From NCBI GenBank assembly GCA_000092065.1, contig CP000589.1: a stretch of DNA of 64,000 bases. One strand, given 5' to 3'. The stretch's first letter is position 1; each line of letters begins with the position of its first letter. The DNA is from Ostreococcus lucimarinus (Eukaryota). The notes beneath the pieces are model-generated. The model saw nothing but the letters and a program-made list of their open reading frames with translations. It had not been told where the DNA came from and did no database searches. Shown here in pieces: positions 1,739-13,757 of this stretch. A program made the position numbers and the translations under genes.

Positions 1739-4222
1739 ATGTCGTCACGCGGTGGGCGTCAAGACACCGCGAGGGAAGCGCACGTGGAGGACGTTGCGCG
1801 AGTTTTCTCGAGCGCTTACGCAGGGAAAAACACAGTTGGCTTTTGCACGTTCGATCGAGACGCGAACGCGTTCTCGTTGGCGCAGGCGATCGTGAGAGAT
1901 GATGACGAGGATGTGCTGAAGCTATTCTTTCGTACGAGTGGTGCGGACGTCGTGTATTGTTCGAGTGAGTTCAAAGCCGCAATCGAGAAGATGAGCGACG
2001 CGCGCGCGACTACGATTGTGGGAATGCCACGAAGGGAGTTTGGAAACTCAATCGACGCCATGGAAAAGCTACGCGACGTTGGGAAGTTTGAGAGTCGCGG
2101 AGATTTGGCTTCGGTGATAGAGTTGCACGACAACGAAGACGCGGTCATCGCCGCGGGCGGTCTGATCGGCGCCTTGCGGCGAAACGAAGGTCTGAACTTG
2201 CAATTGAAGACGTTCCCGGCAAACGTACAAGAGTTCAACGTCGCAAACTACCTCAGCATTGATATCGAATCGCTATGCGCGATTGGCGTGTTCGTTCCGG
2301 AAGAGTTCCGCGAAAATCAGTTCACAAAAGACATGTTTCAAATCTTTCGTGAAGCCTGCGGAACGTCGAGCGGAAGGAAGCTTCTCGAGCTTTGGTTCAA
2401 GCGCCCAATCTTGAACATGGACGTGTTGCAAGAGCGCCGCGACGCGGTTGAGCATTTCGTCAAGTCTGGATGCCTGAACGCATTGCGCAAACGCATGACG
2501 CCCACGATCGACGCGCATCGTCTACTGTCCGCGATGTCATCCAATGACGCACGAGTGGTGCTACAAACGAAGAGCGACTGGACAAAAATCACAAAATACC
2601 TCGGCGCAGTCTCGTCTTTGTACGATTTCTGCGTAGACGCGTATTTTGATGAAGGTTTGAACGAGCCATCAGCCACTACACCGACCGCAATACGAGACTT
2701 CATGGCCTGTGTGATGTATCGCTTGCCCAAGCTCCGAGCAATCGTCGATCGCGTCATATGCGTAGAAGAGATTTACCCCTTGACTGAACACGAATCTGCG
2801 GTGTATACGTCGTACGTGCGCTCGGGCGTGTGTCAAGAGCTAGACGAATTACGATCGGTGTATCATGGACTGCCGGACCTACTGAAACATGTGCTGGACG
2901 CCGAGCTAACAAAGGTGCCAAACTTTCTTAGGCGCGCGAACGACGTCTGTGAGAAACTAGCAATCTGCTACCTCCCGCAAACGGGTTACCTGTTGAAGAT
3001 CGACGATGAAACCGTGCCCGACGCACTATTGGAAGAAATGGATTGGAAGTACGTGTTCGGCGACGCTACGACAAGCTATTACGAGTTTGCCGCCGGATTA
3101 TGCCTAGCGAACGAGCTCGGCGATGTGTTGCATTCCATCGTCGACTTGCAAGAATCCATATTGCGAGAGCTTCGAGAGGAAATTCTGGCACACGCATCGT
3201 TGATGCGCGATATCTCACGATGCGTGAGCGAAATCGACGTTCTACTAGCATTCGCGGACATTGCCGTCAATTACAACATGTGTCGGCCGACCCTGCGCGA
3301 CGACGACGCGTTCGAAGTCGCCGGCGCGAGGCACCCACTCTACGAATCCTTCATCGAAGGGGAATTCATTGGCAACGACGTTCACATGCCGACAGATCGC
3401 GACCGCGTCATCGTCCTTACCGGGCCTAATGGCAGTGGTAAGACTGTGATGATGCAAACGATTGGTCTTATCACGTATCTGGCGCACTGCGGATCGTTCG
3501 TTCCAGCCACTCGCGCCGTCATCGGCTTGACGGATCGCATATATACAGCGATGACTGCGCTCCGCGAAGATGCCGAGCGCAAGACAAGAGTCCCTGAGAG
3601 TGGTTTCACATACGCGCTGCATCAGGTGGCGCGCATGATTAACAACGCGACTAGACGTTCTTTATGTCTGCTGGATGAGTTCGGCATCCAGACCCAATCC
3701 ACCGACGGCGCGGCGCTCTTAGCCGCCATCGTCGAACATTTCGGGAAGCGAAAGCATCCACCGCGTGTACTCTTCACGACACACTTTCGCGAGGTGTGTG
3801 ATCCCACGATCGTCGGCCCGATCCCACACATGGTCGCACACTGGTGCATGCGCGCCATGGTAAATCCATCGGCCACCGACGATGACGACGTGCACGAAGT
3901 CGAGATGCTCTTCAAACTCGAACGCGGCGTCGCCGATTCCAGCTTCGCGCTTAGTGCGTGCAAGCGCGTCGGTTTTCCCGACGAATTCATGGACCGCTTG
4001 AAATACATCATTCAGCGCGAAAAACGCGCGCGGGCGGGCGAAGACGTTCCTCCGCTCGATCCTTGGGCCGACCCCAAACAGGACGCCAAGCAAGAGGTTT
4101 ACAAAGCCATCTGGGAGCGCTTCGAGCGCGCTCGAGCCGACCCCACCGACGCGGCGATGGAAGATTTCTTGGCCTTTTTCGACTCGCTCGCGCTCGACAA
4201 ATACGGCGTGCCCATCGTTTGA
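1739..4222 (+). CDS. MSH5: MutS homolog 5 (MSH5-like, meiosis-specific MutS family ATPase lacking the mismatch-binding domain)
   Basis: Walker A reads LTGPNGSGKT. This is followed by IGLITYLAHCGSFVPA, then NNATRRSLCLLDEFG..TDGAALLAAIVEHF, then a TTHF motif. From my memory of the human protein, these align closely with MSH5 (VGLITFMALVGSFVPA, NNATAQSLVLIDEFGKGT). The N-terminal domain has no MutS-I mismatch-binding motifs. ATG at 1739 checked. Confidence 0.8.
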   Translation: MSSRGGRQDTAREAHVEDVARVFSSAYAGKNTVGFCTFDRDANAFSLAQAIVRDDDEDVLKLFFRTSGADVVYCSSEFKAAIEKMSDARATTIVGMPRREFGNSIDAMEKLRDVGKFESRGDLASVIELHDNEDAVIAAGGLIGALRRNEGLNLQLKTFPANVQEFNVANYLSIDIESLCAIGVFVPEEFRENQFTKDMFQIFREACGTSSGRKLLELWFKRPILNMDVLQERRDAVEHFVKSGCLNALRKRMTPTIDAHRLLSAMSSNDARVVLQTKSDWTKITKYLGAVSSLYDFCVDAYFDEGLNEPSATTPTAIRDFMACVMYRLPKLRAIVDRVICVEEIYPLTEHESAVYTSYVRSGVCQELDELRSVYHGLPDLLKHVLDAELTKVPNFLRRANDVCEKLAICYLPQTGYLLKIDDETVPDALLEEMDWKYVFGDATTSYYEFAAGLCLANELGDVLHSIVDLQESILRELREEILAHASLMRDISRCVSEIDVLLAFADIAVNYNMCRPTLRDDDAFEVAGARHPLYESFIEGEFIGNDVHMPTDRDRVIVLTGPNGSGKTVMMQTIGLITYLAHCGSFVPATRAVIGLTDRIYTAMTALREDAERKTRVPESGFTYALHQVARMINNATRRSLCLLDEFGIQTQSTDGAALLAAIVEHFGKRKHPPRVLFTTHFREVCDPTIVGPIPHMVAHWCMRAMVNPSATDDDDVHEVEMLFKLERGVADSSFALSACKRVGFPDEFMDRLKYIIQREKRARAGEDVPPLDPWADPKQDAKQEVYKAIWERFERARADPTDAAMEDFLAFFDSLALDKYGVPIV

Positions 4223-4372
4223 CGACGCGTCGCGGATTAGAAACGTTGAAATGAAACTCGCGACGCGCGCTCGGCGACTGTAAAGCTCACCGCGCTGGAG
4301 GATCGCACAATTTCGTCAAACGAGCGCGCGCACGCGCGCCACGCGACCCACGAACGCGCGAAGCCCGCAAAT

Positions 4373-5182
4373 ATGATGCTCGTGAACACCAGCGCCTTCG
4401 CCGTCCCTCGTCTGGCGCGCGCGGCGCGTCGGTCGTCGACGAACGCGCGCGATGCGACGCGTGTGACGATTCCTCGCGCGCGCGGTGAATTCAGCGCGGC
4501 GACGACGAAACGCGGCGCTGTGAGGCAGACGATCTCGAGTCGGGCCGCGGTTAAGGCGCGCGCGGCGTCGAGCGAGGACGACGCGGTTGATAAGAAGGAG
4601 GGAAGCGATGAGGCGGTGGCGAACATTTCGCGAAAGGTGGCGCGAACGGCGCGCGCGTGCAAATCCCTCGGACGCTGGTCGTTTTGGTCCCAGCTCGTGC
4701 TGACCACTGTCGCGGCGGTGATCGTGGTGTTTTCGTTTCTGTACAAGGGTTTGACCAAGAGCACGGATGCTGGGTTGTATTTTATCCTGTTCGGCTTGGT
4801 CGCGGGGTACTTTACGACAGTTTGGTCGCTGGGCGTCGTGCGATTGGGCGATAAGCTTCGCAAGGGGTCGAAGGATCTGGATTTAGTGCCTCCGCGCACG
4901 GATGTCATTCGAACTCTCAGCACAGGGCTCACGGTGAACGTCATCGGACTCGGGGCGACCATCGTCGGGTTGCAAGCCACGACGGGGATGTTGTTCGCCA
5001 AGACGCTCACGGCGGCGGCGCAAATGCCCATGTACGGTGCTCCAGTCGTCGGCACGGGCGTGGCGTTGGACATTTTCTTGGTGCAAGCTGCGTCGAACGC
5101 CATGCTCGGGCACTGGTTCGGCTTGGCGACAAGCTTGTGGCTTCTCCGTACGGTTAACTTGCCTTCGCCGCCGCCGAAGTAG
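4373..5182 (+). CDS. TIC21: TIC21/PIC1-like chloroplast inner-envelope protein (DUF3611) with N-terminal Ala/Arg/Ser-rich transit peptide
   Basis: There are four predicted TM helices. Conserved blocks GRWSFWSQLVLTTV, PPRTDVIRTLSTGLTVNVIGLGATIVGLQATTGMLFAKTLT and LDIFLVQAASNAMLGHWFGLATSLWLLRTV match the TIC21/DUF3611 pattern as I recall it from the Arabidopsis protein. The first ~70 residues are a transit-peptide-like stretch. Confidence 0.65.
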   Translation: MMLVNTSAFAVPRLARAARRSSTNARDATRVTIPRARGEFSAATTKRGAVRQTISSRAAVKARAASSEDDAVDKKEGSDEAVANISRKVARTARACKSLGRWSFWSQLVLTTVAAVIVVFSFLYKGLTKSTDAGLYFILFGLVAGYFTTVWSLGVVRLGDKLRKGSKDLDLVPPRTDVIRTLSTGLTVNVIGLGATIVGLQATTGMLFAKTLTAAAQMPMYGAPVVGTGVALDIFLVQAASNAMLGHWFGLATSLWLLRTVNLPSPPPK

Positions 5183-5194
5183 TTTGCCTCCTTT

Positions 5195-5199
5195 TGTAA
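5195..5199 (+). promoter_or_regulatory. TGTAA motif 13 nt past the TIC21 stop (candidate green-algal-type poly(A) signal)
   Basis: tagtttgcctccttttgTGTAAtaag read directly. UGUAA is the polyadenylation signal described for Chlamydomonas and other chlorophytes. Confidence 0.3.
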
Positions 5200-5299
5200 T
5201 AAGAATACTCAAGCCAGCTTTTTATCATGAAGTGCTGGATGTGTGATTAAACGGTCAAATAATTCGCGCGCGCGCGTGCTAGATGATTAGTAGAAATGT

Positions 5300-6784
5300 T
5301 TAGAATTGTAGCCAAGGGTGCTCGAGCATTTGCTCGGCGCTCGCTCTCTTCGATGGATTGAAATCGAGCATGGGCGAGAGAAAGTCGCTCAACTCCTTCG
5401 AGTCTGTTTCACTCATGTTGTACTTCTCCATCAACACCCGTTCGCACGGCCAAAACTTGAGCGAGCGGATGTGTCGAAGTTCACCATTACGGTTGAAGAA
5501 CTCTTTGCTGTATTTGCCCGATAACGCAAGATGTTTGGGCATGCGTCCGATGAGCTCCATCATGAGCGCCAGGTGGTCCTCGTCGCGATCGTAGTCCTTC
5601 CCACTTCTGGGGTCGAACAACACGTCCCCGGTGGCGAGCTCGAAAACGATGCACGCGAGACTCCATATATCAGCGCTCGTGTCATACTTCGCACCGAGGA
5701 TGACCTCGGGCGAGCGATATTGTCTCGTCTGAATGTCTTGCGTGAACTGGCGATCGACCCAGCACGCGTTACCCAAATCACAAATTTTCGCGTCAAGATT
5801 CTTCAGCGTGTTGTACGGAAGTAAGTCAACGCAGTCACCGTCGTCGTCATCATCGTCATCGTCGTTGTCGTCGTCGTCGTCGCTCTCTTCTTCCGTATCG
5901 TCTTTGTCCTCTTCCATTTCGTCCGCGCGCTCGCCAGTCTCCGCGCTTCCGTTCGTCGCCGCCTTCTTCCTGAGCTTCTTCTTCAGTTTCTTCTTTTGAT
6001 TCTTCGTCAGTTCCGCCGTTGAATCACCGTTCGCTCCCGCGCCAACGTCCAAGGCCTCAATCTGGGATTCAATCGTCGGCTTCGCTTCGTCCTCGGTCGC
6101 CTTTTTCTTGCTCGACTTGCCGCGTTTCTTCCTCCTTCGCTTCTTCTCCGGAAGCTTGAAAGTCAAGAGCACGTTCTCGGGCTTCAAATCGGTGTGAATT
6201 ATATTCTTCTTTCCGTGCAAATACCTCAATCCCTTCAACATCGCCCTCGTCAGCGCCTTCACTCCCAACAACGGCACCCCCAAGTACTCGTACCGCTTGA
6301 TCAGCGTCAACAAGTTATCCCCCAACACGTCGAACACCATGCACACGTGCGTCCCATTCGGTCCTTCGTGCGTGAAACTATCGTACAAGCACACAACATT
6401 CGTCGCTTCGTCGCCGTCTCCCGTGTCTCCCTCCTTCACTTGTTTCAATATCTCAATCTCGTCCCGCGCCGCCTCGGTGTAACTCCCGCTGCTCTTCTGA
6501 ATTTTCAGCGCTCGCAGCGTCTTCACCGCGCCGTCTTCGCCCGACGCGCCGCGCGCGCGCGCGTCCTCGACGAGCCAACACGTGGAGAAGTGTCCCCAGC
6601 CCAGCTTTTTCACGACGACGTAGCGGTCGTCGTTGTATCGCTCGCCGATCGACACGGGATGGTAGCCGCCGCGCTTGTACCCGTCGGTGCCTTCGTCCTC
6701 GTCGGACGACGACGCCGAGCGCGAGTCGACGTCGTCGACGTCGCGCGCGTCGCTCGAGGACGTGTCGCTCGACGATCGCGTCAT
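5300..6784 (-). CDS. SRPK: SR-protein-specific kinase (SRPK family Ser/Thr kinase) with acidic/Lys-rich spacer insert
   Basis: GWGHFSTCWL glycine loop, HTDLKPENVLL catalytic loop and CDLGNACW DFG-equivalent are present. The C-lobe QTRQYRSPEVILGAKY..ADIWSLACIVFEL is typical of SRPK. A long K/E/D-rich spacer splits the kinase domain. ATG verified at 6784. Confidence 0.85.
   Translation of the reverse strand: MTRSSSDTSSSDARDVDDVDSRSASSSDEDEGTDGYKRGGYHPVSIGERYNDDRYVVVKKLGWGHFSTCWLVEDARARGASGEDGAVKTLRALKIQKSSGSYTEAARDEIEILKQVKEGDTGDGDEATNVVCLYDSFTHEGPNGTHVCMVFDVLGDNLLTLIKRYEYLGVPLLGVKALTRAMLKGLRYLHGKKNIIHTDLKPENVLLTFKLPEKKRRRKKRGKSSKKKATEDEAKPTIESQIEALDVGAGANGDSTAELTKNQKKKLKKKLRKKAATNGSAETGERADEMEEDKDDTEEESDDDDDNDDDDDDDDGDCVDLLPYNTLKNLDAKICDLGNACWVDRQFTQDIQTRQYRSPEVILGAKYDTSADIWSLACIVFELATGDVLFDPRSGKDYDRDEDHLALMMELIGRMPKHLALSGKYSKEFFNRNGELRHIRSLKFWPCERVLMEKYNMSETDSKELSDFLSPMLDFNPSKRASAEQMLEHPWLQF
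5838..5882 (-). repeat. Imperfect GAC/GAT trinucleotide repeat encoding poly-Asp in the SRPK spacer
   Basis: ccgtcgtcgtcatcatcgtcatcgtcgttgtcgtcgtcgtcgtcg on the plus strand, which is DDDDNDDDDDDDDGD in the minus-strand protein. Confidence 0.8.
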
Positions 6785-6910
6785 CGCGCGCGACGAACTG
6801 CGACACGAGAGTGGGAATCAAATCAAGATGCGAATCGGCGAGCGGCGAACCGGCGACGCGACGCGAGACGACGCGCCGACGCGCCGACGCGACGACGCGT
6901 CTCGCGGCGC

Positions 6911-7672
6911 TCACGCGAAGACTAACAAAACTAAGGCTAACGATACACCGAGCGCGGACGCGGCGACGGCGCGGGCGTCGCGAAAGGCGCGCGCGGACGG
7001 CGCGCCGACGTAGTTGCAGACGCAGTGACACGCCGTCGCCGCGGATAACGACTCGCGGCGCAAGAAGACGCGACACGCCGCGAGCCCGAAGGCGAACGTG
7101 AACGCGAACTGCGTCGCCGACGCGCGAAGCGCGGTTCGAGCGTCGGCGCCCTTGGCGCGCATGCCGAAATAATGATGCGCGTGCGCCGCGCCGAAGAGCG
7201 CGCTCGAGAGCGCGCTCGCGCTCGCCGCGCTCGCCCCCGATCGCATCAGCGTCGCCAGCGCGCACGCCCTGAAGCACCACTCCTCGCACAGCGGCGCGTG
7301 CGCGTAATCCCTGAACGCCGCGAGCGTCGTCCGCCTCGTCCGTCGTCCGTCTCGTCGTCCTTCTCTCGCGCGCGCCGCCGTCTCGCCGAGCGTCGCCGCG
7401 AGCGCCACGCTCATCCCGTACGCCACCGCTCGCGCCTCCCCTAACGGCGGCGCGAGCCCGAGCGTTCGACGCCAAGCGTCGAGCGTCATCGTTTCGTCGC
7501 TCGCGACGCGCGCGGGCGCCCACGCGAGCGCGCACACGACGCTCAGCGACGCAAAGCGCCGTTTCATGACCCGCGCGTCGTCTCGGTCGTCGTCGATCGC
7601 CGTCGTCGCGAACAGCGCCGCGACGTACGCGAGCGCGAGCGCGCACGCGCACGCGACGCCCAGCGCGCGCAT
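6911..7672 (-). CDS. CAAX prenyl protease 2-like (RCE1/CPBP family intramembrane metalloprotease)
   Basis: Multi-pass hydrophobic protein. It carries the three CPBP motifs in order: EExxxR (PLCEEWCFRAC), FxxxH (FGAAHAHHYF) and HxxxN (HCVCNYVG). ATG verified at 7672. The overlapping 430-aa ORF at 6453..7745 is Arg-rich antisense junk. Confidence 0.55.
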   Translation of the reverse strand: MRALGVACACALALAYVAALFATTAIDDDRDDARVMKRRFASLSVVCALAWAPARVASDETMTLDAWRRTLGLAPPLGEARAVAYGMSVALAATLGETAARAREGRRDGRRTRRTTLAAFRDYAHAPLCEEWCFRACALATLMRSGASAASASALSSALFGAAHAHHYFGMRAKGADARTALRASATQFAFTFAFGLAACRVFLRRESLSAATACHCVCNYVGAPSARAFRDARAVAASALGVSLALVLLVFA

Positions 7673-7743
7673 GACGCGCCGCGCGCGCGCGCGAGTGACG
7701 AGTGACGCGATTCATCACGTTCGTCATCACTTCGCGGCGCGTC

Positions 7744-8748
7744 ATGGCGCGCGACGACGCCGATTCGTGGTCCTACGCCCTGGACTGCGCGACGACGAGC
7801 GTGAAATCCTTCACCGCGTGCCTGCAGGCGATCAAGCTGAGCAAGCGATGCCGCGCGCGCGTCCGCGCGGACGCGCGAGGCGTGACGTTCGCGACGATGG
7901 ATGAATCGAAGAGCTGCGGGGCGAGCGTAAACTTTCGCGCGGAGACGTTCGCGCGGTACGCGTGCGATGAGACGTGCGCGGCGCTGGTCGGAGGACGAGC
8001 GCAGCGCGGCGGCGCGCGCGCGGTGGCGTTCGACGTGAACCTCGGGGCGCTGATCGACGCGCTGGGGGCGTTCGGCCGGGGCGACGGCGAGTTGGTCGCG
8101 CGGTGGCCGAATCGAGAGGGAATGCTGACGCTCGAGCTGGAGAGCGCCAAGGGACAGGGGGGGGAGAGAGAATTGAGACAGTGCGTGTACGCGGAGATCG
8201 CGCCGGAGATGGTGCCGGAGGACGAGGAACGAGGGGAGGAGGTGAGTTTTAGGGACGAGGCGAACGCGTTCATGCTGCCGACGGCGACGCTCAAGGAAAT
8301 CGTGGACGATTTGGAGTGGCCGAACGGGGACGTTTTGTTGGAGTGTGACGTGGACATGCTGAAGTTTAGCGCGCATGGGGCGGAAATAGGTGATCTAGCC
8401 GTGGACGTGGACGTCGGGGCGACCGGGAGGTTGACCGAGTTCTCGTGCGCGCAGCCGAGCGCGTCGAGGTACAAGTATCGATTCCTGAAGAGCGCGACGG
8501 CGGTGGGCGGGAGTTTCCTCGGCGGTGGGGGCGCGGGCGCAGGTGGCGGTGGAGGCGATGACACGGTGACGATGACGCGCGTGTCCATATCAAACGTTGG
8601 ATTTTTGAAAATCGTCCACCTGTTGCACCTGAGTCGCGGCCAAGTGTCGTTCGGCGCCGAGGGCGGTTTGAACGCGTTCATGGTGCCCGTGACGTACATT
8701 TTGCACCCGATCGAGGCCGACGCGGATGAATACGCGGATGAGGAGTGA
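7744..8748 (+). CDS. PCNA-like DNA-damage checkpoint clamp subunit, probable Rad1/Rec1 family (9-1-1 complex)
   Basis: The N-terminal block ALDCATTSVKSFTACLQAIKL...GVTFATMDESKSCGASVNFRAETF follows the Rad1 pattern (ATLDNVKLFT..LKAV...GI.VTVE.AK..QANAFIQAGIF). The track start at 7702 is a GTG; the first ATG is at 7744. The C-terminal part carries a Gly-rich low-complexity insert. Confidence 0.4.
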   Translation: MARDDADSWSYALDCATTSVKSFTACLQAIKLSKRCRARVRADARGVTFATMDESKSCGASVNFRAETFARYACDETCAALVGGRAQRGGARAVAFDVNLGALIDALGAFGRGDGELVARWPNREGMLTLELESAKGQGGERELRQCVYAEIAPEMVPEDEERGEEVSFRDEANAFMLPTATLKEIVDDLEWPNGDVLLECDVDMLKFSAHGAEIGDLAVDVDVGATGRLTEFSCAQPSASRYKYRFLKSATAVGGSFLGGGGAGAGGGGGDDTVTMTRVSISNVGFLKIVHLLHLSRGQVSFGAEGGLNAFMVPVTYILHPIEADADEYADEE

Positions 8749-8819: not shown

Positions 8820-11411
8820 TCAACGCAAAGCCGAGGCGAGAAGCACCCACGGGAGCTGACACGCGACGCAAGTAGCCATCACCACACATCCGCGCACTCG
8901 CGCATTTCGCAGAGCCCGTCTTACGCGAACCACAGAGTCGTCTGCGACGCAGGCTTCGTCTCTATCTCGATCGTACCACGCGATGACGGCGATATCATCT
9001 ATGTTTTGTGTCAACGCAACGACGCGACCGAGGGCGTCCACAAATGGCTCGCGCGCAAAGTTCATAGACGCGTACGATAGGACGAGAAGCAACGCGCGCT
9101 GAATCCAATCGTGCGCGTAACGCTCGACAGCACACGTGGTTTCGATCGCGTGCGCGCGAAGGAGGTCGTCGATGGGACCGACGCACGAGGTCGCCGCTGA
9201 ACACGTCGGCGGCTGGCATTCGGACGCGGCGCCGCCGTCGTCGAGTTTGAACGATTCAAGTGCGCACGACTGCGCCGCGCGCGCGTGCGTTTGAAAGATC
9301 TCGCTCTCATCGCCGTGAATCACATCCACGCACGCATCGATGGCGAGTAATGTTTCACGTGAAGCGTCCAGCGTGGTTTCTAGGCGATGTCGCTCGACGT
9401 CGGCTACGTTGAATCGCTCTGCCGTCGCCACGCGCCGCGCGTCGCACGTTTTCGTGAAGTTGTACGCCAAGTACGAGTCGAACGCCAACGCTCGTGTGCG
9501 CGGTGCGGTATTGACGTAAGAGTGCGCGAATACGAAGGCGTAATCGGCCGCCAAAGTACCGTTTCTACTTTCCACGCATCCCTTCACATACGAGCGATGG
9601 GTTTGGCGATACACGTGCAGCGAAGCGACGGTGATGGCGATGAAGATGGTGAAGCGCACGAAGGCGACCATGGCCGGATCGGCAACGAATCTTGCAAACT
9701 GCTCAAGAGAACTTATTTTGCGCTCGCCGGCGTCGCGGTCGCCATCGATCAAGTTGAGCGGCTCGAGCTCGAGCGCGCCGTAAGATAAATGTTTGGACAC
9801 CACGGAGACACATCGAATGACGCGGTACGTCAGATCAATGTTTACCAAACCAGCGAATGCAAACTCGGCGATTGAGAAAAACCCGTGAATGTGTACACCA
9901 CGAAACGTGATGTTGAAGAAATCGAAATCATCTGCGTCGGGCGCAACGTCAGGTGAAGAGAAATTTGTCGTCGTCAAGTACATCACGGCGGCCGCGCTTT
10001 GGTTCAAACCAAAACGCACAAAGTCAGACGTCTGCGCCGATGAAGCGTTCGTTGATTCTACGAACAAGTCAGATCGTTCTCGAATCGCTTGGAGGGTTTC
10101 TTCACCGAATTGCGTCGAGTTGTCTGTTGTAGAGCCATCCGAGCTCTCAAACGGCGGCGGGTCATAATCACTCAAGAGCGAAGGAATGCCCAGATCGACA
10201 CCGATGTCCACAGAAGTGGCTTCAGTGAGAGCATTATTTATTGTTGAACCCGCAATCGTCGCTGAAGCAGACATTAGTGTCGTGAAGTCGTCTGAGAGCC
10301 CGTCAAACCCGCCTATTGGTAAATCCGGCGACAGCCATTGAAAATCTGGCACCGAGACGACGGGCGCGTTTGGAAGTGATATCAGGGGCGTATTCGGGAG
10401 GTTCAAGCCGTGCGAGTCTTCAAGCGACTGAATCACCGGTCTCACATTCGTTTCAAAATCATCAAACCACGTGAGAACGTTTTCAAACGTTGCATCAACG
10501 TTTATGGCGTACGCTGCCATTTCGTCTGCGATTTCGCCTACTTCGGACATCATGAGCGCCAGTGAGGCGTTGACGACGTTCGTGCGCATCGTGTCTACAG
10601 CTGTACTCACACCGTACGAAAACGCATTTAATCCAGTCCCCACGCTCGAGTTGAAGTCTTGAATCGCCTCGATCGATCTATCATGGATGGCCGCGTATCC
10701 CGATTCGGCGAATCGCTTCACATCGAGCGATACGTTTTGCAAGCGTTCTGACTTATTGTCCATGTACTCGAGGTCATACTTTGAACGGGCGTCAATATTC
10801 GTCAACAGAAGTGCGACTGAACGCTCAATATCACTCGTGTACGATTCGCTGGATGAATGATACCTCGCCATCGTCTCTCGGGCACCGCTTTCGTTCATCG
10901 CGAGCAACACCGAGCGCTTAGGAGCGGTGGTCGCGCTCGCATTCAAGCATCTCTCATTCCAGAATGTCGATGAATTCGCAACGTACGCCGGCTTGAGCTT
11001 AGCCGAGAGATTGCTCAAAGCGCGTTCGCACCGTCGAATCTTACGTCGTAGCGCGCGAAGCTTTGCGTCGTTTGCGCCGCCGACGACTTCAGCCGCCGAG
11101 CGTCGCGTCTCCGCGTCTTCGCGAGCGCGACGCGCGCATCCGTCGCGAACACGGTGCACACACGCATCATACCACGCACGCTCACGCGTCACCTCTTCTT
11201 GCGCTCCGCGCCACCGCACCGCCGCCTCTTCGAATGTCACCTTTGTATTCCCTCGAGCAAAGTCCGCGACGCGTTTCGCCGACTCGAGCGAGGCGGCCCA
11301 AATCGTCGCCGCCGACGTCGCCGCCATGACCACTCGACGCACGCGCTCCGCGCGCACCCGCTCGCGCCGTCGCATCTCTCGCTTCCACACGACATCTTCC
11401 GCGCGCCGCAT
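8820..11411 (-). CDS. Large hypothetical membrane protein (863 aa), one internal TM helix plus a hydrophobic C-terminus, many N-x-S/T sequons, Cys-rich C-terminal region
   Basis: Complete ATG-to-stop ORF. The composition is balanced, rich in S/T/D/N/F/Y and unlike the Arg/Ala-rich spurious ORFs. A TM segment MVAFVRFTIFIAITVASLHVY lies about 570 residues in. The C-terminal 270 residues hold about 15 Cys. I recognise no family. Confidence 0.5.
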   Translation of the reverse strand: MRRAEDVVWKREMRRRERVRAERVRRVVMAATSAATIWAASLESAKRVADFARGNTKVTFEEAAVRWRGAQEEVTRERAWYDACVHRVRDGCARRAREDAETRRSAAEVVGGANDAKLRALRRKIRRCERALSNLSAKLKPAYVANSSTFWNERCLNASATTAPKRSVLLAMNESGARETMARYHSSSESYTSDIERSVALLLTNIDARSKYDLEYMDNKSERLQNVSLDVKRFAESGYAAIHDRSIEAIQDFNSSVGTGLNAFSYGVSTAVDTMRTNVVNASLALMMSEVGEIADEMAAYAINVDATFENVLTWFDDFETNVRPVIQSLEDSHGLNLPNTPLISLPNAPVVSVPDFQWLSPDLPIGGFDGLSDDFTTLMSASATIAGSTINNALTEATSVDIGVDLGIPSLLSDYDPPPFESSDGSTTDNSTQFGEETLQAIRERSDLFVESTNASSAQTSDFVRFGLNQSAAAVMYLTTTNFSSPDVAPDADDFDFFNITFRGVHIHGFFSIAEFAFAGLVNIDLTYRVIRCVSVVSKHLSYGALELEPLNLIDGDRDAGERKISSLEQFARFVADPAMVAFVRFTIFIAITVASLHVYRQTHRSYVKGCVESRNGTLAADYAFVFAHSYVNTAPRTRALAFDSYLAYNFTKTCDARRVATAERFNVADVERHRLETTLDASRETLLAIDACVDVIHGDESEIFQTHARAAQSCALESFKLDDGGAASECQPPTCSAATSCVGPIDDLLRAHAIETTCAVERYAHDWIQRALLLVLSYASMNFAREPFVDALGRVVALTQNIDDIAVIAWYDRDRDEACVADDSVVRVRRALRNARVRGCVVMATCVACQLPWVLLASALR

Positions 11412-11490
11412 TCATCTCGCGCGCCGCATTCTATTTTCGTCCTCGTCCGCGGCGTCGCCCGCCCGTCGTCGGTTGTTAAGTCATGTTCAA

Positions 11491-12000
11491 ATGCCACCCA
11501 TTGTCAGAAGCCGAAGCGGCATCGCGGGCCCCTGGACGCGCGCGCGACTCGCGATGCCCGACGAACGCGCGACGGAGACGCAAAAACACCCCCGCATCGG
11601 CGTCGGCGTCATCATCCGTCGCGAAGACGGCCGCATCGTCGTCGGTCGTCGTCGCGGCTCGCACGGTTTGGGACAGCTCGCGCTGCCCGGTGGCGCTTTA
11701 GAGTGGAAAGAATCCATCGCGCAGTGCGCGAGTCGAGAGACGATGGAGGAGACGGGTCTGGACATCGCGCCCGAGGCGTGGATCGCGCCGTTCGCGATGT
11801 GCGAGTCCGTGATAGACGAGAACAATCATTGGTTGACGGTGTTCGCGCTCGCCGACGTCGCCGCGGACTGCGAGCCCGCGAACGTCGAACCGCACAAGTG
11901 CGAGGGGTGGACGTTCATGTCCATCGGCGACGTGCGCGAGGCGGATAATTTGTTTTTACCGCTTCGGAAGCTCGTGAACGATCGCACGGTGGCGCTCTAG
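11491..12000 (+). CDS. NUDIX hydrolase
   Basis: Canonical Nudix box GGALEWKESIAQCASRETMEETGL (Gx5Ex7REUxEExGU). The upstream part of the track ORF (10927..11490) is antisense to the neighbouring gene and is not coding. First ATG in frame at 11491. Confidence 0.75.
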   Translation: MPPIVRSRSGIAGPWTRARLAMPDERATETQKHPRIGVGVIIRREDGRIVVGRRRGSHGLGQLALPGGALEWKESIAQCASRETMEETGLDIAPEAWIAPFAMCESVIDENNHWLTVFALADVAADCEPANVEPHKCEGWTFMSIGDVREADNLFLPLRKLVNDRTVAL

Positions 12001-12950: not shown

Positions 12951-13757
12951 CTAATACCTAACCGCCTTACTCTGCGTCTCTCGCTCCTCGCGAAATAGTA
13001 AAGCGAGCCTACCAACACCGTACCCATCGACACCGTTCGCTCCGACGAGCGCGCGTGCCCATTCGTCGTGCCCCACTACAGGTTCGCCCGCGAAGCCGTC
13101 GACGCTGTGAAACACACGGTCGCCGCGAAAAATGACCGCATCACCGTCGTTCACGACGATTTCGACGCCTAAATCCTGCCCCTCTACCGGTCGGCTTTGC
13201 GCGTAGGCATCGTACATCGACCCGCGAGCGGGCGGTTTACCTATAGTCATCCGCGTCGGCCGACCGCCCAGCGAAATCGAGACGACCCAACCGACTCCTC
13301 TGTCGAGGTGCGGCGCCATCGTCTCTCGCCGTTTCCCATCTCCCGAAGCCGCCTCGCCGTACACCAGCGCCCAAAAGTGACTCGCCTCGAACGGGTCGTC
13401 GTTCGCGAACGCTCGCCGTAGCGCCCCGTCGTCGTCGTCTTTCGTCTTCGCCGTCGCGACGACGCGCGCGCTCAGCTCAAACAAGTCAATCGGCGCTTCG
13501 CTCAGCGCGCCGACGTCGCCACCGCACGCGCCGGTGCATCGCTTCAATCCGCACGCGCGCACGCACGCCATCGCGCGCTCGCGCTGCCCTCGCGCGTGCG
13601 AGGCGACGATTGTCGGGTGGTCGTTCGCCGCCGCGCGCGCCCAGGCCTCGCGCGAGGCGTACCGCGCGACGGATTCCGTCGCCCGCGCGCGCTCGCGCGC
13701 GTCGAGCGCGTCGCGCAGGACGTAACACTCGAACGGCAATCGCTCGAGGCGCGCCAT
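12951..13757 (-). CDS. AlkB-like 2-oxoglutarate/Fe(II)-dependent dioxygenase
   Basis: HLD (HxD) is followed by SISLGGRPTRMTIG and a second His in GDAVIFRGDRVFHSV. This mirrors the AlkB HxD...SLG...GDxxxxxGxxRxxxHxV core. ATG verified at 13757. Confidence 0.5.
   Translation of the reverse strand: MARLERLPFECYVLRDALDARERARATESVARYASREAWARAAANDHPTIVASHARGQRERAMACVRACGLKRCTGACGGDVGALSEAPIDLFELSARVVATAKTKDDDDGALRRAFANDDPFEASHFWALVYGEAASGDGKRRETMAPHLDRGVGWVVSISLGGRPTRMTIGKPPARGSMYDAYAQSRPVEGQDLGVEIVVNDGDAVIFRGDRVFHSVDGFAGEPVVGHDEWARALVGANGVDGYGVGRLALLFREERETQSKAVRY

Follow-up and report, generated by a model that had tools for sequence, protein, structure and literature searches.

The 863-codon open reading frame at 8820..11411, on the minus strand of the 64,000-nucleotide stretch of Ostreococcus lucimarinus DNA analysed here (the window), probably encodes a polytopic membrane glycoprotein that belongs to an unnamed algal family and has the topology and the surface role proposed below, a reading to which we give a probability of about 0.55. 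Its features are listed in Table 1.

Table 1. Features of the 863-aa gene and its predicted product (positions in the window; membrane orientation as predicted)
Feature	Residues	Position	Strand	Basis
Complete single-exon CDS	863 aa + stop codon (8820-8822)	8820..11411	-	ORF list
Arg-rich N-terminal tail, predicted cytosolic	1-26	11334..11411	-	K+R content, WW domain of relatives
TM1, predicted signal anchor	27-43	11283..11333	-	family-mean hydropathy 1.85
Exoplasmic loop 1 (predicted), all-helical	44-510	9882..11282	-	13 sequons; Cys 84, 92, 128, 155
Family signature D-Y-x-P-P, here DYDPPPF	415-421	10149..10169	-	42-sequence alignment
TM2	511-535	9807..9881	-	family-mean hydropathy 1.25
Cytosolic loop 1 (predicted), basic	536-580	9672..9806	-	K+R 13.6%; 0.55 sequons/100 aa
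TM3, strongest hydrophobic segment	581-597	9621..9671	-	family-mean hydropathy 2.44
Exoplasmic loop 2 (predicted), Cys-rich	598-769	9105..9620	-	Cys and sequon density
TM4	770-786	9054..9104	-	family-mean hydropathy 1.83
Cytosolic loop 2 (predicted), basic	787-842	8886..9053	-	K+R 16.5%; 0.19 sequons/100 aa
TM5 and 4-residue C-terminal tail	843-863	8823..8885	-	family-mean hydropathy 2.02
Intergenic region, 142 bp, divergent, between the 863-aa and NUDIX genes		11412..11553	.	gene positions

Evidence for a genuine gene

Judged by sequence conservation, the frame is a genuine gene and a feature far beyond chance, because full-length orthologues exist and dN/dS is below 1. The first-pass annotation had placed it correctly, from ATG to stop, and had also rightly remarked on its protein-like composition, which is ordinary, the overlapping ORFs being by contrast Arg/Ala-rich. 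A search for orthologues elsewhere, whose absence would point to a spurious ORF, returned an identical protein (P0001) and two full-length orthologues with 43% and 40% identity. Collinear, single-exon positional orthologues were found on seven contigs, from four Ostreococcus-like, one Bathycoccus-like and one Micromonas-like lineage (labels assigned from GC content). They are flanked by NUDIX and Rad1 genes at L001 and L003-L007, and the L002 locus has only a 233-aa neighbour in common. Between L003 and L004, dS of the 863-aa gene is 0.30 and dN/dS is 0.447. Many long non-coding ORFs do arise on both strands in the GC-rich DNA of this region, and the frame could in principle be one of them. 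Against this stand the full-length orthologues in conserved synteny, the dN/dS of 0.45, 95 remote homologues whose alignment has columns invariant for Cys and motif residues, and a confident alignment-based AF2 model; the conservation data refute this reading, and the chance we leave it is negligible.

An unnamed family in several algal groups

The earlier description of a real gene of the membrane glycoprotein type, outside any curated or recognisable family, still stands. The 863-aa protein has no match in Pfam, even at E<=10, and none in a PDB sequence search; a PDB profile search with the 42-sequence family alignment (A2) gave coiled-coil noise only, and comparison with solved and viral structures gave no convincing match. 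Word-indexed homology searches went no further than three Ostreococcus-like clusters, whether the query was the single protein, A1 or A2, and the wider family surfaced only through an exhaustive profile search, which gave 95 matches (E<=1e-3) that include many full-length proteins of 850-1150 aa. Taxon labels were looked up for 23 clusters of relatives, where the names found were Haptolina ericina (a haptophyte) and Ditylum brightwellii (a diatom), so that the protein is not lineage-specific, as had first been supposed. Its family thus appears, from these sequence matches, to be eukaryotic and algal, spanning green picoalgae, haptophytes and diatoms. A scan of bacterial and archaeal genomes found no relatives, and a scan of IMG/VR viral contigs with A1 found neither relatives nor a viral copy. 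In the literature on PRM1-, GEX1- or HAP2-related candidates in Mamiellales and diatoms, nothing was found on this family. One of the 29 further members (A4) that, with A2, make up the 71 Pfam-scanned sequences has an SprB/Por-tail match; it is a bacterial-type protein that the profile search probably picked up in error.

Family members share five hydrophobic segments, the D-Y-x-P-P signature of loop 1, the motifs G-C-V-x4-N-G-T (after TM3) and N-x-S-R (after TM4), and eight Cys that are conserved in loop 2. The 863-aa protein has all of these except for the Ser of N-x-S-R, a motif that here reads N-F-A-R. Ten positions are invariant in the 42 sequences (C84, C155, Y212, Y416, P418, P419, C612, C694, C743 and C760), and D415 is conserved in at least 90% of them. 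Conservation extends into the membrane segments: W38, S41 and L42 of TM1 are invariant in the three Ostreococcus-like orthologues, W38 being nearly invariant in the 42-sequence family, as are D526 and R530 near the cytosolic end of TM2 and both N784 and R787 of the N784-x-x-R787 motif that follows TM4. P854 and W855, which form a conserved P-W in TM5, are invariant in the three orthologues, and so is ER.RRVVM in the N-terminal tail. Among the Ostreococcus-like orthologues, conservation is highest over residues 521-560 (68% of positions invariant), where TM2 gives way to the following loop.

Membrane topology

The protein was first described as having a single internal TM and a second hydrophobic segment at its end. 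The strong TM (residues 580-598) and the C-terminal segment (841-859) are both present, but five hydrophobic segments (residues 27-43, 511-527, 581-597, 770-786 and 843-859) are conserved among the orthologues and across the wider family; some of these had been missed because three of the five are weak in the 863-aa protein itself. TM3 has a Kyte-Doolittle hydropathy of 2.14-2.22 in this protein. Since TM2 and TM4 are only weakly hydrophobic there, the 863-aa protein, taken alone, might conceivably have a three-TM topology.

The N-terminus and cytosolic loop 2 probably face the cytosol, because relatives carry WW or ubiquitin-like domains at these places: P0078 and P0082 have a WW domain (residues 15-45) in their longer N-terminal tails, and in P0080 a ubiquitin-like domain (residues 816-888) lies between hydrophobic segments 4 and 5, these three proteins accounting for all domain fusions among the 71 sequences scanned. 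Lys and Arg make up 12 of the 25 residues preceding TM1 and, across the family, 7.4-7.8% of the two large loops (7.8% in loop 1) versus 13.6-16.5% of the presumed cytosolic parts. Sequons (N-x-S/T) show the opposite distribution, with 1.6-1.8 per 100 aa in the large loops (1.79 in loop 1 and 1.56 in loop 2) versus 0.2-0.55 in the presumed cytosolic parts. The richness in sequons to which the first-pass annotation drew attention is borne out by shuffling: the whole protein has 15, versus 5.3 +/- 2.1 expected, and none of 20,000 shuffles reached this number. All 15 lie in the two large loops, together with 12 Cys. In loop 1, the sequons at 219 and 470 are retained in 25 and 35 of the 42 relatives, respectively, and loop 2 has an N-G-T sequon at 617-619.

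In the arrangement that we propose, the Arg-rich N-terminus would stay in the cytosol, with TM1 acting as a signal anchor, residues 44-510 and 598-769 would lie on the lumenal or extracellular side and be N-glycosylated, the short basic loops of the TM1-TM5 base would face the cytosol, and the C-terminus is predicted to be outside. This N-in topology, in which two glycosylated, disulfide-cross-linked exoplasmic loops form a stalk, is well supported and, in our estimation, highly probable.

Cysteines and predicted fold

About 15 Cys had been attributed to the C-terminal domain; there are in fact 12 after the internal TM and 17 in the entire protein. The view of the N-terminal domain as Cys-poor also needs amending, since the four Cys of loop 1 are conserved in the family. 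Loop 2 has 4.5 Cys per 100 aa, and all eight (C612, C656, C694, C716, C732, C737, C743 and C760) are invariant or nearly so, the last of them forming part of a C-x2-E-x3-H motif at 760-767. The number of ectodomain Cys is even throughout, with 12 here, 10 in P0002 and P0003 and 14 in typical members, which suggests intramolecular pairing. In addition, joint loss of C92 and C737 is seen in at least three lineages with just 19-24% identity among them, P0055 and P0095 lack both C128 and C716, and P0054 and P0055 lack both C656 and C732; exceptions to such joint loss are P0056 and P0106 for C92, and P0071, P0102 and P0054 for C128/C716. Because Cys are lost together in distant lineages, these sequence patterns suggest disulfides bridging loop 1 and loop 2. 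Six disulfides would then cross-link the exoplasmic loops, with C92-C737 and probably C128-C716 as inter-loop bridges; C656-C732, within loop 2, is a further predicted pair.

An AF2 model from the 42 sequences is all-helical (pLDDT 74.5, pTM 0.50), with about 18% of it, chiefly distal loop 1, at pLDDT <50; a model from three sequences was useless (pLDDT 33.7). The helices predicted at 60-145, 178-266 and 279-334 include one of 89 residues, the longest, and helices of 75-89 residues would each exceed 10 nm if straight. Both exoplasmic loops together could thus form one long all-helical stalk atop the TM1-TM5 base.

The model also bears on HAP2/GCS1, whose likeness to the 863-aa protein is limited to the idea of a surface protein in a sexual protist. 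HAP2 belongs to the beta-rich class II fusion proteins and has a single-pass anchor, unlike the 863-aa protein, which is predicted to be all-helical and polytopic. The HAP2-GCS1 Pfam model had no match in the 863-aa protein at E<=10, in the 42 A2 sequences at E<=0.1 or in the 29 A4 members at E<=0.001. The first-pass annotation had already rejected a HAP2/GCS1 identity, and the all-helical model, the five hydrophobic segments and the lack of a Pfam match in the protein and its 70 relatives uphold that rejection.

Sequons and disulfides would be explained equally well by the lumen of the ER, Golgi, vacuole or nuclear envelope, and a lumenal protein of the ER or nuclear envelope, for instance a nuclear fusion factor of the KAR5/GEX1/Brambleberry type or a lumenal spacer, would also account for the long helices and the conserved Cys of the N-terminal region. 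The likeness to KAR5/GEX1 comprises lumenal Cys, long helices and a suspected role in sexual fusion. GEX1/KAR5 proteins are defined by a signal sequence, an N-terminal six-Cys CRD, a pair of coiled coils and, at the C-terminus, two or three TMs (PMC7586128). The 863-aa protein has instead an Arg-rich tail and a signal anchor, four conserved Cys spread over 70 residues of helix, TMs that alternate with loops, and most of its Cys between TM3 and TM4. None of the 71 sequences scanned matches Tht1 (PF04163), which we take to be the Pfam model for KAR5, and a core organelle protein would hardly be expected to diverge so quickly. With the defining architecture absent and no Tht1 match, a KAR5/GEX1 identity is rejected, and a lumenal role of this kind as a whole seems very unlikely.

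Resemblance to PRM1 and to prominin/TTYH proteins

In PRM1, a first TM and a large glycosylated helical loop are followed by two TMs, a second large loop that bears Cys, and a last TM (PMC2868043), and this core layout is the same in the 863-aa protein, for which hydropathy, sequons, charge and domain insertions all give a PRM1-type multipass topology, the N-terminus lying in the cytosol and two large loops outside. PRM1 has, and the 863-aa protein is predicted to have, N-glycosylated, largely helical exoplasmic loops, and the loop Cys of PRM1 are functionally important. PRM1 itself, known from S. cerevisiae as Prm1p, is a pheromone-regulated plasma-membrane fusion protein that is induced in mating, is required for membrane fusion and forms homodimers covalently linked by disulfides between the two chains. 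The 863-aa protein could then be a divergent member of the PRM1 family, that is, a disulfide-linked multipass glycoprotein stabilising the fusion zone at gamete merger. The Prm1p sequence used for comparison was matched to the residue numbers and 12-Cys count in PMC2868043. It has Y-V-P-P some 30 residues before TM2, which recalls the invariant D-Y-x-P-P, and the rapid evolution of the ectodomain would also fit. An hmmsearch against this one PRM1 sequence gave a marginal 6.6 bits, a score that none of 2000 shuffles reached, but the match covers a 120-residue helical stretch alone, short of the motif and the TMs, and hhalign of the 42-sequence profile with Prm1p gave a probability of 0.19% and aligned a different region.

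Other differences weigh against PRM1 as well. Prm1p has three lumenal Cys (PMC2868043), versus 12 in the 863-aa protein, which is also about 200 aa longer and has one more TM, at the C-terminal end. In loop 1 of the 863-aa protein there is no conserved, non-spanning hydrophobic segment adjoining a Cys, such as the one adjacent to Cys-120 in PRM1; a weak hydrophobic segment at 279-295 occurs in the 863-aa protein only. PRM1 is fungal, whereas the labelled relatives found here are algal, Haptolina and Ditylum being the only labels among the 23 clusters looked up (the table of 95 matches carries no taxonomy). Given a marginal HMMER and a negative hhalign result, the protein is not filed here as PRM1, the resemblance being one of architecture, and membership of the PRM1 family is distinctly unlikely.

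The description of a five-TM protein with a glycosylated helical ectodomain made from two loops applies to TTYHs as well, in which this ectodomain is disulfide-stabilised (PMC8361169), and Prominin 1 is described as a five-pass protein that remodels membranes (PMC11405016). The structural score of the 863-aa protein against solved TTYH structures was not above background. A housekeeping membrane organiser of this kind, with no mating role, would use its helical ectodomain as a lipid-binding cavity or as a curvature-sensing scaffold at the plasma membrane, and the presence of family transcripts in Ditylum and Haptolina culture transcriptomes is in keeping with it. However, neither the 42 A2 sequences (E<=0.1) nor the 29 A4 members (E<=0.001) have a Prominin or Tweety Pfam match. 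The predicted orientation differs too, being N-in/C-out and having the odd TM C-terminally, versus N-out/C-in in TTYH (PMC8361169), and loop 1 is far longer (467 aa) in the 863-aa protein. A gene that evolves faster than any other in its neighbourhood would also be unusual for a housekeeping scaffold, and we consider this reading rather unlikely. If the family does prove to be housekeeping, the finding is that of an ordinary unannotated membrane protein.

Rate of evolution and possible function

Among 15 syntenic genes, the 863-aa gene is the most diverged (40-43% identity versus 48-99%), and its dN/dS is the highest of 14 genes. The Bathycoccus-like positional orthologue retains 18% identity, when the other alignable neighbours there have 33-56%. 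Windows of dN/dS peak at 0.8-0.9, in the N-terminal tail, in loop 2 and in one part of loop 1, none of the windows exceeding 1, and all nine polymorphic residues among eight alleles fall within the two large loops. The ectodomain may thus be weakly constrained, which would fit a protein exposed to mates or viruses; the high dN/dS can reflect relaxed constraint instead of an arms race.

Returning to the surface glycoprotein that we favour, we infer, with the odds somewhat against it, a protein of cell-surface contact, recognition or membrane organisation that would work like PRM1 or prominin/TTYH and not as a HAP2-type fusogen. The gamete or organelle fusion factor evoked in the first-pass annotation is pure speculation. 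Any leaning towards a fusion role draws on PRM1-like topology and rapid ectodomain evolution, and on nothing else. Strictly gamete-limited expression is disfavoured because the culture transcriptomes of Ditylum and Haptolina include members of the family. It would be an improbable outcome for the 863-aa protein to be the first described member of an ancient five-pass family with a helical stalk, spread over Mamiellales, haptophytes and diatoms, whose rapidly evolving ectodomain serves in picoalgal mating recognition or fusion, as a counterpart of PRM1, or in giant-virus docking. To our knowledge, neither Ostreococcus nor its relatives have ever been seen to mate, and we know of no prasinovirus receptor identified in them. 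A gene that is conserved, probably exposed, predicted to be glycosylated and the fastest-evolving of its neighbourhood is thus a concrete candidate for mating or virus reception. Its family has neither a Pfam model nor a solved or viral structural relative, and appears to span three of the major groups of phytoplankton. Testable structural predictions follow from the topology and from the pattern of Cys co-loss, and gene targeting is available in O. tauri.

The 142 bp that separate the 863-aa gene from the divergently oriented NUDIX gene are presumed to be a bidirectional promoter. GTGAC is invariant there, in a GGTGAC(R)TTT context, and TAAC(A/C) is present at three of the four Ostreococcus-like loci.

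A conserved gene in a conserved neighbourhood

The target ORF is a genuine, conserved gene: 5.8 billion proteins were searched and yielded an identical one, whose cluster has 119 members, along with two orthologues of full length at 43% and 40% identity. On the contigs encoding these proteins and two further relatives, a common gene order was read: NUDIX / target / Rad1 / Rce1-like / kinase / DUF3611 / MutS. It is kept in four loci of 58–62% GC (contigs L001, L003, L004 and L005) and also in two of 43.5% GC (L006 and L007), where the counterpart of the target is 1040 aa long and just 18% identical, while a 66% GC contig (L002) retains the neighbouring 233-aa gene. Their GC content, their gene density and the synteny suggest that these loci come from Ostreococcus-like, Bathycoccus-like and Micromonas-like genomes. 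Between L003 and L004, the target has a dS of 0.30 and a dN/dS of 0.447, and its frame is therefore under purifying selection, which, together with conserved synteny and full-length orthologues, excludes a spurious ORF.

As the first-pass annotation had it, the composition is protein-like: it is ordinary (A 13.4, R 8.9, S 8.6, V 8.6%), in contrast to that of the Arg/Ala-rich ORFs overlapping the target in other frames. The view that the protein falls in no curated family also stands, since both Pfam (even at E ≤ 10) and PDB sequence searches gave zero matches.

Features of the target locus and its surroundings
Feature	Position	Strand	Remark
Target, 863 aa	8820..11411	-	ATG to stop, from ORF listing
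MutS homologue, 827 aa	1739..4222	+	MutS_III and MutS_V domains only
Target/NUDIX intergenic region, 142 bp	11412..11553		divergent
Lys/Glu-rich protein, 233 aa	12205..12906	+	no Pfam match
268-aa protein	12951..13757	-	no Pfam match
Arg/Ala/Ser-rich ORF	10927..12000	+	overlaps real gene(s)
Arg/Ala/Ser-rich ORF	9387..9788	+	overlaps real gene(s)
Arg/Ala/Ser-rich ORF	6453..7745	-	overlaps real gene(s)

The long Arg/Ala/Ser-rich ORFs, which lie in other frames or strands, we take to be artefacts of GC-rich composition rather than genes. One of them, a 357-aa GTG ORF, prolongs the 148-aa NUDIX gene at its upstream end and runs antisense into the target.

Membrane topology and ectodomain

Family-averaged hydropathy gives five conserved hydrophobic segments, at residues 27–43, 511–527, 581–597, 770–786 and 843–859. 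In the target itself, a strong segment is seen at 580–598 and another at 841–859; three of the five are weak, which accounts for the single internal TM helix of the first-pass annotation, now superseded. Four independent lines agree on a predicted cytosolic N-terminus and on exoplasmic loops at 44–510 (loop 1) and 598–769 (loop 2). The richness in N-x-S/T sequons noted at first pass is confirmed (15, versus 5.3 +/- 2.1 in shuffles, with 0 of 20,000 shuffles reaching 15), and all 15 are located in the two loops. Family sequon density per 100 aa is 1.79 in loop 1, 1.56 in loop 2 and 0.19–0.55 elsewhere, with sequons at positions 219, 470 and 617 retained in 25, 35 and 22, respectively, of the 42 sequences of the family alignment. 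The K+R content, 13.6–16.5% in the short loops and 7.4–7.8% in the large ones, fits the positive-inside rule. WW and ubiquitin-like domains are cytosolic domain types; a WW domain occupies residues 15–45 of a longer N-terminal tail in two relatives, and another relative, P0080, has a ubiquitin-like domain at 816–888, between its fourth and fifth segments. Conserved Cys are confined to the two loops and even in number (12 in the target, 10 in the relatives P0002 and P0003, 14 in typical members). The C-terminal part is indeed Cys-rich, with 12 of the 17 Cys of the target after residue 598 rather than the about 15 first counted. These features point to a five-segment protein whose two exoplasmic loops are Cys-rich and glycosylatable.

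Loss of C92 goes with loss of C737 in P0002/P0003, P0088 and P0101, representing at least three independent events because these lineages share only 19–24% identity; we infer from this a C92–C737 disulfide linking loop 1 to loop 2. C128 and C716, both absent from P0055 and P0095, probably form another inter-loop disulfide, and C656 and C732 are both absent from the Bathycoccus-like pair P0054/P0055. Exceptions to the co-loss pattern are P0056 and P0106, and P0071, P0102 and P0054. Such inter-loop disulfides would make the two loops a single ectodomain.

AlphaFold reached a pLDDT of 33.7 with three sequences, and of 74.5 (pTM 0.50) with the 42-sequence alignment; pLDDT exceeds 80 at 11–170 and 571–863, except for one block at 75, and is low in parts of distal loop 1. 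The target is predicted to be all-helical, with very long helices at 60–145, 178–266, 279–334, 620–694 and 748–801; those of 75–89 residues would each exceed 10 nm if straight, and the modelled TM helices are continuous with ectodomain helices. Foldseek found zero matches below E=1e-3 in the PDB and only SMC/Rad50-type coiled coils in BFVD.

An undescribed algal family

Searched exhaustively with an HMMER profile, 1.84 billion representatives yielded 95 proteins at E ≤ 1e-3, 29 of them at E ≤ 1e-10, many being 850–1150 aa long and aligned end to end. In the 42-sequence alignment, C84, C155, Y212, Y416, P418, P419, C612, C694, C743 and C760 are invariant and 18 further positions are at least 90% conserved. 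Positions of these two classes include a D-Y-x-P-P motif; conservation also marks G-C-V-x4-N-G-T after the third hydrophobic segment, and C-x2-E-x3-H before and N-x-S-R after the fourth. Sequences labelled Haptolina ericina (UniRef A0A7S3EX51) occur in the clusters of relatives, as do MMETSP/EukProt transcripts labelled Ditylum brightwellii. Green algae, haptophytes and diatoms thus all have members of the family, contrary to the lineage specificity first supposed, and it is transcribed in cultures. No Pfam family is common to the 71 members scanned, and neither viral relatives (IMG/VR viral contig scan, Foldseek against BFVD) nor bacterial ones (bacterial/archaeal genome scan) were found. The target belongs, as a genuine member, to an algal family of membrane glycoproteins hitherto undescribed. 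Among the 29 further members from weaker profile matches, one bears SprB repeats plus a Por secretion tail, which mark it as bacterial in type, and was probably picked up falsely by the profile search; the scan gave no member name, and we suspect that it is P0134, matched in 6 short stretches.

HAP2, already dismissed at first pass, is again rejected, given zero Pfam matches and the helical model. KAR5/GEX1 is defined by a signal sequence, a six-Cys CRD, coiled coils and a C-terminal TM cluster (PMC7586128), and is rejected since these defining features are absent from the target. The topology resembles that of PRM1 (PMC2868043). A Prm1p sequence agreeing with PMC2868043 in E104, D112, C120, C277, C545 and a 12-Cys total, matched the family HMM at 6.6 bits (E 8e-5 as a single comparison) over a helical stretch only; 0 of 2000 shuffled controls reached 6.6 bits, the reversed sequence scored 0.1 and hhalign gave a probability of 0.19%. 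The target belongs to neither HAP2 nor KAR5/GEX1 and probably not to PRM1 either, and at most works like these proteins.

Rate of evolution and proposed role

The target evolves fastest within its neighbourhood. None of the other 14 of the 15 syntenic genes has diverged as far: comparing the window's species with two others, the target is 40.0% and 42.6% identical (the rest, 48–99%), and it again diverges most between L003 and L004 (76.7%), for which its dN/dS is the highest of 14 genes (others, 0 to 0.41). Windows of 0.8–0.9 cover loop 2, residues ~390–480 of loop 1 and the N-terminal tail, and values of about 0.15 extend across TM2, cytosolic loop 1 and TM3. Eight alleles of the window's species differ at nine residues, all of them in the two loops (P about 0.07, not significant alone).

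The protein would sit at the cell surface and act in contact, recognition or membrane organisation; its exoplasmic loops may instead face the endomembrane lumen, and its function may be a housekeeping one.

Neighbouring genes

The MutS homologue, in which a domain scan found no mismatch-binding domain I, has what we take to be the domain set expected of meiosis-type MSH4/MSH5, and, at 48–50% identity, ranks with the most divergent of the 15 syntenic genes. In the intergenic region, the ACGT-core-like element GTGAC is invariant in 4/4 Ostreococcus-like loci, where it lies within GGTGAC(R)TTT, and a Myb-like TAAC(A/C) is kept in 3/4; both may be shared promoter elements. A gene similar in size to that of the 233-aa protein is present two genes upstream from the target (adjoining it in L002) in the Ostreococcus-, Bathycoccus- and Micromonas-like loci examined, identity to the L001 copy having been measured for L003, L004, L006 and L002. 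A weak zf-CCCH match is seen in the copy of L002. The 268-aa protein is 58–62% identical across Ostreococcus-like loci, and BLASTP gave zero match to the same-position 271-aa gene of the Bathycoccus-like locus. Relative to the window, coordinates on L001, the metagenome contig encoding the identical target protein, are shifted by 9 bp. The shift originates at some point between MutS and Rad1 (window ~4222–7744) and implies a small indel between the two sequences.
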